Shown here in pieces: positions 1,595 through 5,650 of a stretch of DNA of 64,000 nucleotides (position 1 is its first letter; each line of letters begins with the position of its first letter). Source of the DNA: Promethearchaeia archaeon (lineage in GTDB: Archaea; Asgardarchaeota; Lokiarchaeia; Sigyniarchaeales; SOKP01); the NCBI GenBank assembly GCA_046483985.1, contig JAWOCD010000028.1:1-64000 (forward strand), given 5' to 3'. Position numbers and translations under genes: made by a program. The notes under the pieces were generated by a model. The model did no database searches. It had not been told where the DNA came from and worked only from the letters and a program-made list of their open reading frames with translations.

Positions 1595-1640
1595 GATAAA
1601 TAGTATTTTTTTCATCATTATATTAATTAAAATGAAATAG

Positions 1641-2036
1641 GTGGTTTTATTTAGAGTAAAATTCACCAATGAAGCGTTGGACTATATCTCCGAAAAAAAT
1701 AAAGAGGTTAGTATCAGTTCCGATGAAGAAGAGAAATATGTGGTAGCATTTTTTTATTACTCCGCGACCACATGAACGATGTCATTCTGTGGAAATGTTT
1801 TGGAACTCGTGCAAAAACGGAAAATTGAAAAAGAAATCTCGGATTTTATCCGATGGACAGAATTTGAAAACCTCGAACCCAATGACCCTCGTGTTGAATT
1901 ATATATTGAAAAACAGTTGATTCCCGAATTAAAACAAGAAGATGTACTCGTGATTGATGTTGCCATTGGGGAATTAGAGGATGGTAATAAAATGGGAATG
2001 CTCTTTATCAAAAAAGGGGATAATGTATATGGATAA
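1641..2036 (+). CDS. Candidate selenoprotein, IscA/HesB-like fold, Sec (TGA) at codon 45
   Basis: GTG at 1641 is in frame with track ORF 1779..2036 through a single TGA at 1773-1775: MVLFRVKFTNEALDYISEK...YVVAFFYYSATT-U-TMSFCGNVLELV...VELYIEKQL...VLVIDV...GMLFIK. A SECIS-like hairpin follows the stop. Confidence 0.75.
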
Positions 2037-2252: not shown

Positions 2253-4202
2253 ATGACTTCAGTAGCAAGAAAAATTATCAAAGAACATATAGTAGAAGGA
2301 GAGTTTGAGATTGGAGAGGAAATTGGATTACAGATTGACAATACCTTAACCCAAGACGCCACGGGCACTATGGCGTACCTTCAATTTGAAGCAATGAAAT
2401 TAGATAAAATTCATACAGATTTATCGGTTTCATTTGTTGATCATAACACTCTTCAAACGGATTTTAAAAATCCTGATGACCATCGATATTTAGCCTCTGT
2501 GGCTGCAAAGTACGGGATTTATTTTTCTCGCCCGGGAAATGGCATCTGTCATCAAGTGTTTTTAGAACGATTTGCAACCCCGGGAAAGACACTCATAGGT
2601 TCGGATTCACATACTCCGACTGCGGGTGGAATGGGAATGCTAGCAATTGGTGCGGGGGGCTTGGATGTAGCAGTTGCCATGGGCGGAGGTCCCTTTTATA
2701 TTAACACACCAGAGATTCTGGGGATAAAACTGATTGGCACCTTACCGGATTATGTGTCGGCAAAAGATATCATTTTGGAAGTCCTTCGGAGATTGGACGT
2801 CAAGGGAGGTGTCGGCAAGATCTTGGAATATTTTGGTCCCGGAGTCAAGACGCTCACCGTTCCGGAGAGGGCAACCATCACCAATATGGGAGCGGAAACC
2901 GGAGCAACCACCTCGATTTTCCCCTCTGATGAGAAAACCAAAGAATTCTTGGAATTGGAAGAGAGAGAGGATCACTGGATAGAAATTCCAGAAGCAGAAG
3001 AGGACGATTTTGACGAGGTTATAGTTATTGATTTATCAAAAGTAGAACCTTTGATAGCTAAGCCCCATTCTCCCGGAAATGTTGTCCCGCTTACGGAATT
3101 GGAAGGGATGATGGTGGATCAAGTCGCGATTGGCTCGTGTACAAATAGTTCTTTGAAAGACATGTTAACGGTTTCAGCCCTCTTAGAAAATAAAGAAATC
3201 GATAAAGAGACGGTGCTTGGAATTACCCCCGGTTCCCGTCAAGTGCTCCTTGAATTGGGAAAACGAGGGGGACTACAAAATATGATATCGGCTGGAGCCC
3301 GTATTTTAGAAAGCGCGTGTGGTCCGTGTATCGGAATGGGATTCGCGCCAAAGTCAAATGGGATCACGGTGCGAACCTTCAATAGGAATTTTTATGGAAG
3401 GAGCGGAACAAAAAGCGCTAAAATTTATTTGACCAGTCCCGAAGCTGCGGTGGCTGCTGCGATCTTTGGGGAGATAAAACATCCCAAAAATTTAGGAACA
3501 TATCCTTCCATTGACTTACCGTCCCAAATCGAGATTGATGATTCCTTAATTATTGAACCCCCCGAAGATGCTTCTCAAGTTGAGATTGAAAGGGGTCCTA
3601 ATATTGCTCCCTTGCCGGACTTTGATCCTCTTCCCGAAAGTTTCGATCATTTAAAGATATTGATAAAACTAGAAGATAATATCACTACTGATCATATTAT
3701 GCCTGCCGGTGCAGCAATTCTTCCTTATCGGTCGAACTTGCCGAAGATAAGCGAATACGTCTTTACGCAGATTGATTCTTCTTTTTCGGAGCGAGCGTTG
3801 GAAGCCAAACAAGAAGGAGGCACGGTTATAGTGGGAGGAGAAAATTACGGACAAGGATCAAGTAGAGAACATGCAGCGTTAGCACCGATGTATTTGGGGA
3901 TAAAAGCGGTTCTATGTCGATCGTTTTCGAGAATTCATCGGGATAATCTGGTTAATTTTGGGATTTTACCATTGGTCTTTCGAGATACTGAGGATTATGA
4001 AAAATTAAAAGTGGACGATATTCTTCATATAAAAAATGTGAGATCTGCATTATTATCCGAGGAAGGCCTTATTTCCATTCAGAATATCACGCAAAATTAT
4101 GAATTTAAAGCACGCTATAATCTCTCTGAAAGAGAAATTCAAATCCTCCTCGCGGGCGGAAAGTTAAATTACACAAAGAAATTAGTAACTGAATCCTCAT
4201 AA
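2253..4202 (+). CDS. acnA: Aconitate hydratase (short, about 650-aa type)
   Basis: Motifs DHN, GICHQ, GSDSHT, GSCTN, CGPCIG, TDHI and NYGQGSSREHA, including all three cluster cysteines. Confidence 0.93.
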   Translation: MTSVARKIIKEHIVEGEFEIGEEIGLQIDNTLTQDATGTMAYLQFEAMKLDKIHTDLSVSFVDHNTLQTDFKNPDDHRYLASVAAKYGIYFSRPGNGICHQVFLERFATPGKTLIGSDSHTPTAGGMGMLAIGAGGLDVAVAMGGGPFYINTPEILGIKLIGTLPDYVSAKDIILEVLRRLDVKGGVGKILEYFGPGVKTLTVPERATITNMGAETGATTSIFPSDEKTKEFLELEEREDHWIEIPEAEEDDFDEVIVIDLSKVEPLIAKPHSPGNVVPLTELEGMMVDQVAIGSCTNSSLKDMLTVSALLENKEIDKETVLGITPGSRQVLLELGKRGGLQNMISAGARILESACGPCIGMGFAPKSNGITVRTFNRNFYGRSGTKSAKIYLTSPEAAVAAAIFGEIKHPKNLGTYPSIDLPSQIEIDDSLIIEPPEDASQVEIERGPNIAPLPDFDPLPESFDHLKILIKLEDNITTDHIMPAGAAILPYRSNLPKISEYVFTQIDSSFSERALEAKQEGGTVIVGGENYGQGSSREHAALAPMYLGIKAVLCRSFSRIHRDNLVNFGILPLVFRDTEDYEKLKVDDILHIKNVRSALLSEEGLISIQNITQNYEFKARYNLSEREIQILLAGGKLNYTKKLVTESS

Positions 4203-4561: not shown

Positions 4562-5146
4562 GTGAAAAAAATGAGGGCTTCTCGTGTTCTTCGGTTTATA
4601 ATCAAGATATTTCTTATCATACTTACATCCTCAATGTCAATAGTCTCATTTCTTGGGGGATATTCAGCGGTGATGATCCTTTCTGAAGAGGAAAACATAC
4701 AAGTTCCTGAACATGGTGAAGAGATTGAATTTTCTTTTCCCGACTTGGGAGAAAATTTTACAGACGAGGCAGAAAATATCTCAATAATCCTCCCATTTAG
4801 AATCACCAATGCTGGTTTTTTCAACTTGGATGATTTATCAGTAGAAATGATTATTGATTTGCAGTATGAAGATAAAACCGATAATAATAAAACGAAGAGA
4901 TTAAAAATATTTGAAAAGCCAATCAATTTTGGGTCAATTGAAGCAGGGAAAACGTATCAAGATGATTTTCTTGCCGATGAGAATGATTTCGATATAGTCA
5001 AGTTGAACGATACGATTCCAAAAATCAACGAAGACGGGCCGCTGGACTTTTTGGCTGATATTTCATTAAGTGCCAAATATTCCTTGAAATTGCTGAGTTT
5101 TCGAGTCACTTTAACCGATGTTGAAATTGGGGAGGCGGGAGTTTAA
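4562..5146 (+). CDS. Membrane-anchored hypothetical protein (single N-terminal TM, acidic beta-rich domain, LEA_2-like)
   Basis: 194-aa ORF with an N-terminal hydrophobic helix and the motif ITNAGFFNLDDLSV. First of three abutting genes. Confidence 0.7.
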   Translation: MKKMRASRVLRFIIKIFLIILTSSMSIVSFLGGYSAVMILSEEENIQVPEHGEEIEFSFPDLGENFTDEAENISIILPFRITNAGFFNLDDLSVEMIIDLQYEDKTDNNKTKRLKIFEKPINFGSIEAGKTYQDDFLADENDFDIVKLNDTIPKINEDGPLDFLADISLSAKYSLKLLSFRVTLTDVEIGEAGV

Positions 5147-5650
5147 ATGGGAGCGACAAAGAATATGGTCAGAGGCACCATTTATGCTTCAGTTTATGTA
5201 GTTTCAACTTTAATTATCCCGTTACTTACGTTTAGTTATATTAACACCCTCGATGTGCAAGGACTTACCTTACAAATGCAACAAAAGACCTACAACGATA
5301 TTATTTTCTGGATATCAGCATTTGGATTGTTAATTTCGGGAACGGCCTTTTTTACTTATTCTTCTCCATCCCAATCCATTCGTCGCGGTGTTATGTCATT
5401 GGTACAGCTCCTCTTGAATTGCATGTATATTTGGAGTTATAAATTCTCTGGAGCGACAGAGATAGTTTTCGAAATTACGGGATTTGGTTCCATGTGGTTG
5501 AACCTTTCTCAAATGGTTATGCTATTTTTGGGCATCTATTTCCTTTCAATTTTGCTTAAAATATATGATATCGTTGATTTTACGGTGAATCGGAAAAAAA
5601 TCCGAGAAACTCGATGGAAAGATAATATAGAGGAGGGGGAGAAGAAATAA
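5147..5650 (+). CDS. Hypothetical four-TM membrane protein
   Basis: Four hydrophobic segments, GGAG upstream, abuts both neighbours. Confidence 0.75.
   Translation: MGATKNMVRGTIYASVYVVSTLIIPLLTFSYINTLDVQGLTLQMQQKTYNDIIFWISAFGLLISGTAFFTYSSPSQSIRRGVMSLVQLLLNCMYIWSYKFSGATEIVFEITGFGSMWLNLSQMVMLFLGIYFLSILLKIYDIVDFTVNRKKIRETRWKDNIEEGEKK

Follow-up and report, generated by a model that had tools for sequence, protein, structure and literature searches.

The window analysed here, a stretch of 64,000 nucleotides from a Promethearchaeia archaeon, very probably contains a selenocysteine (Sec)-decoded gene for a protein with a HesB-like fold at positions 1641–2036 of the forward strand. On computational evidence, the in-frame UGA at 1773–1775 is almost certainly read as Sec. 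The predicted product of 131 amino acids belongs to subfamily 1 of a family characterized by the motif U-T-x-x-F-C-G-N, and its gene is followed by a selenocysteine insertion sequence (SECIS) of the Loki type.

The gene frame extends from GTG at 1641 to TAA at 2034–2036 and contains a sole in-frame TGA, at 1773–1775. A TAG codon at 1638–1640 sits immediately 5' of the GTG, with the result that the frame opens at this point. The standard ORF listing begins at ATG 1779 and gives a protein of 85 amino acids; 46 codons lie 5' of this ATG, and read-through of the TGA yields 131 residues, in which U45 and Cys50 (the latter encoded by TGT, 1788–1790) form a U-x4-C motif. Cys50, a possible partner of Sec45, is near-invariant across the family alignments. 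The extension by 46 codons through one TGA to GTG 1641, which had been proposed in a first-pass annotation of this DNA, was confirmed as to frame, and its prediction that standard gene callers would miss the gene also held, with database homologues consisting of C-terminal fragments of 80 to 85 amino acids or carrying W at the TGA.

The start of the gene is provisional. A nucleotide alignment, together with the sequence around the start at 10 more loci, revealed a Shine-Dalgarno–like AGGTGG at 1639–1644, in which GGTG(G/A) is kept in all relatives, whatever the reading frame, and GTG 1641 falls within this conserved motif. A TTG two codons downstream is the start in most relatives, and the window gene has TTA there. 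Assignment of GTG 1641 as the start codon of the window gene is thus uncertain. The start codon of the family varies behind a fixed GGTG(A/G)-TTT (window 1639–1649; loci L035–L044), being TTG in most members, CTG in L037 and L042, ATT in L039, and AAT in L036; in the window's clade, which has TTA at the start site, the GTG inside the Shine-Dalgarno–like motif is the only canonical start. In locus L007 (2243–2256), the NH2-terminal block of the homologue lies in a different frame after a run of A. Given that L037 is near-identical to L007 and intact, this frame change is probably an assembly error.

Comparison of homologues showed TGA in frame at the identical alignment column in all 29 TGA-bearing copies, which share 24–81% protein identity. 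Synonymous sites near the TGA are close to saturation (pS of 0.5–0.9), and the conservation of the in-frame TGA is far beyond chance. For the 44 codons 5' of the TGA, we obtained pS values of 0.49–0.74, pN values of 0.12–0.37, and dN/dS ratios of 0.09–0.45 by the Nei-Gojobori method; the upstream dN/dS ratios indicate that these codons are protein-coding and under purifying selection. Downstream of the TGA, dN/dS was ≤0.30.

A word-indexed search returned only homologues of 80 to 85 amino acids whose first residues are the same M-[SA]-F-C-G, together with one of 107 amino acids with W at the site, and the contigs behind all of these proteins have an in-frame TGA with conserved amino acids upstream of it. 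A profile search over 1.84 billion representatives yielded 40 relatives. The full-length proteins among them carry W at the Sec site in all but one case, and in all three relatives with readable DNA this W is a TGA that was called under code 4. A genuine Cys at the Sec column, read by table 11, is present in P0048, encoded at locus L032 (the one such homologue examined), and this locus lacks a SECIS. A scan of species-representative genomes added 10 more loci, all with TGA at the Sec site and all labelled as Promethearchaeota or Promethearchaeia metagenome-assembled genomes or uncultured archaea. The first-pass annotation had looked to homologues with Cys or TGA at position 45 and conservation on both sides as support for Sec, and to Trp, Arg, or another non-Cys residue at this position as evidence against it. 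The TGA-bearing copies and P0048 provide the former, and the three readable W cases proved to be TGA.

The SECIS, at 2040–2074 on the forward strand, is eukaryote-like and of type I, and it starts 3 nucleotides past the stop codon. It consists of AUGA (2040–2043), a 9-bp stem formed by 2044–2052 with 2064–2072, an apical loop of 11 nucleotides (2053–2063, ACAAAUGUUAG), and GA (2073–2074). Mariotti et al. 2016 (PMC4989117) define the lokiSECIS as a 9-bp stem with an 11-nucleotide apical loop, AUGA immediately before the stem, and GA immediately after it, located near the 3' end of the coding sequence, with the first five loop bases being A-rich and the final loop base being a G preceded by A. 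The window element shows every one of these features, including position, and fits the type I eSECIS-like model of Huang et al. 2024 (PMC11227280). It differs from the elements in these two sources in that it serves a family absent from their lists (HdrA, VhuD, VhuU, PrxL, SPS, AhpF-N, and DsbA-like proteins).

Covariation, a descriptor scan, and a covariance model support this element. Across 6 loci, the AUGA and GA were invariant, 98.8% of cells were paired, compared with 35–54% in slid-partner controls, and 6 of the 14 pairs had changed on both sides. A strict descriptor scan of the 4.06-Mb genome to which the window belongs (G000) found 6 sites, whereas a reversed decoy gave none and three shuffled sequences gave 2 each. 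One of these sites lies 24 nucleotides past hdrA-vhuD, both with their known Sec sites present, and its loop differs only slightly from the loop of the window SECIS; relaxed descriptor matches follow two further vhuD genes and a prxL gene. The covariance model R1 was built solely from ten SECIS elements of other G000 genes (hdrA-vhuD, vhuD, prxL, and others) and was searched over 153 kb of window and locus sequence. It matched the window at 2034–2100 with 31.5 bits (E = 2.9e-5), the next match in the window scoring 14.4 bits; at 15 further loci, it likewise matched the element located immediately 3' of the family gene. Nothing was found by R1 over the Cys-homologue locus L032. On inspection, a SECIS was located 2 to 17 nucleotides past the stop codon in 17 of 17 scanned TGA-bearing loci with 3' sequence. 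An Rfam search of the region returned no SECIS family, and the fold of the whole 216-nucleotide intergenic region was uninformative (z = −0.64).

The SECIS in the window is followed by a G+C-rich mini-hairpin at 2078–2092 of the same strand (CCGGC-UUGCG-GCUGG, then TTT), two of whose five pairs covary. Similar mini-hairpins, with stems of 3 to 6 bp and loops of 5 to 7 nucleotides (UUGCG, AAGCC, UUGCAA, or UAGCA), follow nearly every SECIS in G000 at a distance of 2 to 8 nucleotides past the GA. We found no mention of such a hairpin 3' of the SECIS in the accessible portions of PMC4989117 and PMC11227280.

The first-pass annotation had made its proposal depend on the presence of Sec machinery in the genome, and the corresponding genes were detected. 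A tRNA-Sec gene is located at C17:67637–67725 (61 bits; reported by ARAGORN as SeC with anticodon tca), and a SepSecS gene lies directly beside it (488 bits). A gene for a SelB-like GTPase is situated about 4 kb off on the same contig (236 bits, with the next-best GTPase match at 146 bits). A SelD gene carrying its own TGA is present on C97 (169 bits), and a gene for a PSTK-like kinase on C51 (158 bits). The tRNA-Sec, SepSecS, and SelD exceed their cut-offs; the PSTK-like and SelB-like proteins fall under the strict cut-offs of their models, which were built on other lineages. The genes for the SelB-like GTPase, tRNA-Sec, and SepSecS form a Sec gene cluster of about 6.4 kb at C17:62760–69118.

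Public gene calls, with their short fragments or W at the site, are what would be expected if the TGA were a true stop or a Trp codon, in which case the locus would comprise a pair of small ORFs, a pseudogene, or, as assumed by callers that applied code 4, a gene under an alternative genetic code. We consider this explanation highly improbable, given that purifying selection acts on either side of an invariant TGA, a covarying SECIS follows the gene, and a Cys homologue exists whose locus lacks that element. In addition, TGA is an ordinary stop in G000, where 244 of 1,581 long frames end with this codon, and the only tRNA with anticodon UCA found in this genome is tRNA-Sec. On the basis of these stop counts and of the selection and SECIS evidence, we rejected Trp decoding, a pair of separate ORFs, and a pseudogene alike. 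The recoding mechanism is well supported: on computational grounds, the UGA at 1773–1775 would be read as Sec by tRNA-Sec and a SelB/EFSec-type factor, with the Loki-type hairpin in the 3' untranslated region, 3 nucleotides past the stop, probably serving as the recoding signal.

We obtained an AlphaFold2 model of the protein from an alignment of 45 sequences (pLDDT of 82.6, pTM of 0.77); a model from 6 sequences (pLDDT of 45.9) was not used for structure searches. The model supports an IscA/HesB-like fold. Among 48,161 PDB representatives, the top seven matches were all HesB-fold proteins, with Z-scores of 7.2 to 3.7 and coverage of residues 1 to 131: SufA (7.2), IscA (6.7), two Lactobacillus putative Fe-S biosynthesis proteins (6.0 and 5.5), IscA with a [2Fe-2S] cluster (5.2), DsrR (5.2), and HI1723 (3.7). 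The eighth match was unrelated (Z of 2.8). The Z-scores of the HesB-fold matches are middling (<8); the argument for the fold is carried by the exclusivity of the match list. Foldseek placed the same proteins on top, with TM scores of 0.41–0.59 by target length, and the language-model neighbours of the homologue P0014 were PF01521 clusters (score of 0.88, 185 shared features).

Sequence profiles do not establish homology with IscA. Neither the protein nor the family alignments gave a significant Pfam, NCBIfam, or PDB sequence match. The PF01521 hidden Markov model (HMM) did not match the window protein at E ≤ 1 or any of 19 members at E ≤ 10, and a six-frame search of the genome with PF01521 missed the window protein. 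Alignment by hhalign with 11 Asgard PF01521 proteins gave probabilities of 3–8%, being colinear and better than a reversed-profile control. The only PF01521 match in G000 is a 109-amino acid ORF at C45:31952–32206 (L030 1501–1830), with 21.5 bits, under the cut-off.

In A-type carriers, the first ligand Cys (Cys35 of IscA, in the motif G-C-S-G) is located in the loop after strand 2. The model places Sec45 in the β2-β3 loop, topologically equal to the loop with the first ligand Cys of IscA, and the weak hhalign alignment sets U45 on the Cys of GGC(A/S)G. The two residues may therefore be equivalent, as judged from the model, although the Sec loop (residues 41–50) is its least confident part (pLDDT of about 52). 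The COOH-terminus, ...KKGDNVYG, has no Cys, with the result that the COOH-terminal CxC cluster ligands are missing; a COOH-terminal Cys is lacking in all subfamily-1 members and in most subfamily-2 members. The description of the protein in the first-pass annotation as IscA/HesB-like therefore stands with regard to fold, for which the model and its PDB matches provide support, and does not extend to membership of PF01521 or TIGR01911 or to the CxC ligands. Similarly, its placement of U at the first conserved Cys agrees with the loop in the model and is matched at the sequence level by the 3–8% hhalign alignment only. The comparison with PF01521 that it had suggested, by profile and by structure model, thus gave a resemblance to SufA and IscA in structure and not in profile.

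We compared the family with three known systems. It shares with IscA/SufA (PF01521; PDB codes 1r94, 1s98, 1x0g, and 2d2a) the modelled fold over 93–97 aligned residues, the order of secondary structure elements, and a reactive chalcogen residue in the loop after strand 2. It differs from these proteins in lacking an HMM match and a COOH-terminal Cys-x-Cys, and the window protein has Sec in place of Cys and an extra Cys five residues on. The HesB-like selenoprotein TIGR01911 (HesB_rel_seleno) has been labelled with 75Se in Methanococcus maripaludis and also occurs in anaerobic bacteria (PMC11097638, PMC1794560, PMC13188914); the function of the M. maripaludis protein is not known (PMC11097638). 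Members of TIGR01911 and of the window family are both distant IscA relatives of about 100 to 130 amino acids with one Sec, and the Cys homologue P0048 matches TIGR01911 over residues 1–87 (E = 1.8e-4, 22.1 bits, compared with a cut-off of 66.35 bits). The TIGR01911 HMM, however, gave no match in G000 at E ≤ 0.001 and none to the window protein at E ≤ 1. The U-x-G-P motif of TIGR01911 (PMC13188914, Table 1) is not present in the window gene, which has U-T-M-S at this position, within U-T-M-S-F-C with its added Cys; U-S-G-x of subfamily 2 resembles U-x-G-P (PMC13188914) without being identical to it. Unlike TIGR01911, the window family is decoded by a eukaryote-like lokiSECIS rather than by an archaeal SECIS of the GAA_A type or a bacterial SECIS, and it was found in one Lokiarchaeial family only. 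The third system, the CC/Se motif family (NF041239, PF28096), resembles the window family in that its proteins are small and exist in Sec and Cys forms, and it also appeared among the language-model neighbours of P0014. The match to it was weak (13.3 bits, E = 0.067, residues 5–27), far under the 40-bit cut-off, with 3 of 45 members matching weakly, and the window family has no CC/CU motif. On the basis of the absence of CxC and the presence of a second Cys five residues past Sec, we filed the family as a new family of HesB-fold selenoproteins, related to PF01521 and TIGR01911 and a member of neither.

A profile search of 151 genomes of the phylum detected the family in 13, with G000 counted. 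These 13 all fall within the GTDB family of the window, in which 12 of the 25 genomes sampled besides G000 were positive, compared with none of 125 elsewhere. Its detection was thus confined to a single GTDB family within Promethearchaeia (Lokiarchaeia). Exactly one TGA is present in every one of the 15 matches from this search. The family comprises two paralogous subfamilies, in which each gene has its own SECIS: subfamily 1, with U-T-x-x-F-C-G-N and a COOH-terminal V-Y-G, and subfamily 2, with R-S-U-S-G-x-[FY]-C. G000 carries one member of each, the subfamily-2 gene (R-S-U-S-G-Y-Y-C) being located on the reverse strand at C123:7820–8188 (L064 4321–4689) with its own slightly imperfect SECIS and with P2A-type ATPase genes on both flanks. 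In relatives, genes of both subfamilies are often arranged in tandem.

Neighbouring genes were compared at 24 loci. A P2A-type ATPase gene (SERCA/PMR1-like, about 607 bits, under the equivalog cut-offs) adjoins the family gene at 22 of the 24 loci, usually in divergent orientation, and two unknown genes for proteins of about 194 and 167 amino acids (u194 and u167) usually lie downstream. In the window, u194 and u167 are located at 4562–5650, have no Pfam or NCBIfam match, and show synteny with the selenoprotein gene in the majority of relatives. An aconitate hydratase gene at 2253–4202 on the forward strand (PF00330, 358 bits; NF005558, 955 bits) is a neighbour of the family gene in the window. 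Such a gene lies between the family gene and u194/u167 at 8 of the 24 loci, co-oriented with the family gene in the window, L001, L004, and L040 and convergent with it in L039, L043, L044, and L074. At 10 or more loci, aconitase is absent and u194 and u167 follow the family gene directly. No Fe-S assembly genes were found among the identifiable neighbours at the 24 loci. With its presence at a third of the loci and in either orientation, aconitase is a variable insert rather than a conserved partner of the family gene, and an operon of the two genes was rejected from the synteny.

Given the lack of a COOH-terminal CxC, we do not regard the protein as a canonical IscA. Both the flexible loop with its U-x4-C pair and the homologous placement of Sec point to either a cargo-binding site or a selenenylsulfide couple. 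For cargo binding, Sec45, located in the flexible β2-β3 loop, and Cys50, five residues later, would form a selenolate/thiolate site, probably across a dimer, that would bind and hand on labile iron, an Fe-S cluster, or a chalcogen. We put forward this role tentatively, as the leading possibility. It is weakened by the existence of HesB-fold proteins that do not bind a cluster, DsrR being among the structure matches. A plain redox role is about equally likely and would be just as tentative: Sec45 and Cys50 of a genuine selenoprotein would cycle between selenol/thiol and selenenylsulfide forms without metal or cluster cargo, as in a thiol-selenol oxidoreductase or a peroxide or disulfide reductase built on a HesB scaffold. 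The placement of the U-x4-C pair within one flexible loop, the loss of the CxC ligands, which is seen directly in the sequence, and the absence of an Fe-S assembly context are consistent with such a role. We know of no oxidoreductase that uses the HesB fold as its scaffold, however, and the Cys homologue P0048 has Cys at the Sec site and Leu in place of Cys50, indicating that the Sec/Cys pair is not obligatory. More generally, a Sec-Cys redox pair occurs in most uncharacterized prokaryotic selenoproteins, for which redox functions are assumed (PMC13188914), and this also speaks for a redox function here.

The first-pass annotation had suggested that the protein delivers or repairs the [4Fe-4S] cluster of the adjacent aconitase. 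Such an A-type carrier would accord with the HesB-like fold, with the co-oriented aconitase genes of the window, L001, L004, and L040, and with the scarcity of canonical PF01521 proteins, which were found in just 3 of 61 sampled genomes of the phylum. The suggestion rested on adjacency, however, which does not hold at two-thirds of the loci and includes four convergent arrangements; at least 10 loci have no aconitase, the paralogue on C123 has none nearby, and the CxC ligands are missing. We therefore regard service to aconitase as improbable. A broader proposal draws on the same scarcity, most genomes of the phylum being without A-type Fe-S carriers: the family would be a selenium-dependent stand-in for these carriers, in which a pair of protomers would use Sec45 and Cys50 to bind a labile Fe-S (or Fe-Se) cluster for delivery to client enzymes, and the Lokiarchaeial selenoproteome would far exceed the published one in size. 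Taken as a whole, this proposal seems unlikely.

Other genes of G000 also carry in-frame TGA codons and SECIS elements. The genes just upstream of the SECIS elements at C18:75230 (reverse strand), C95:49135 (forward strand; this copy is contained in L028), and C101:87265 (forward strand) encode paralogous proteins of about 160 amino acids with adjacent in-frame TGA-TGA codons (D-A-D-U-U, A-G-C-U-U, and S-U-G-U-U), each followed by a lokiSECIS. As judged from sequence, they are candidates for an unlisted family in which two Sec residues are adjacent. Two membrane-anchored paralogues, each of about 320 amino acids, at C37:48133 (reverse strand) and C97:43833 (forward strand; L026 and L029) have two conserved in-frame TGA codons, one of them in an NH2-terminal hydrophobic segment, and a lokiSECIS within 10 nucleotides of the stop. 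A small membrane protein of 98 amino acids with the motif G-G-U-S-T-V at C8:27198 (forward strand) is followed by a lokiSECIS, and a SECIS-like element is located at C24:25180 (forward strand). In all, at least five additional candidate gene families with a SECIS that are absent from published lists occur in G000, among them the proteins with predicted adjacent Sec residues.

The Asgard survey (PMC11227280) lists seven selenoprotein families only (SelD, FrhA, HdrA, FrhD, Prx-like, AhpF-N, and DsbA-like) and contains no mention of HesB. A review published in 2026 counts eleven archaeal selenoprotein families, three of them exclusive to Asgard archaea, and HesB-like proteins are not among these three (PMC13188914). 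Published surveys searched by homology to known families (PMC13188914 and PMC11227280), and we found no paper in the open-access literature that describes the window family. Starting from the SECIS and then examining the upstream frame recovers families that homology-based surveys cannot see. Annotation pipelines mis-call every member of the present family: the gene is reported as a fragment of 80 to 85 amino acids, split into two ORFs, or given Trp at the TGA. The finding adds a divergent HesB-fold selenoprotein with two subfamilies, together with further candidates in the same genome, to the selenoproteins of these archaea, and it bears on the function of HesB-like selenoproteins in general.
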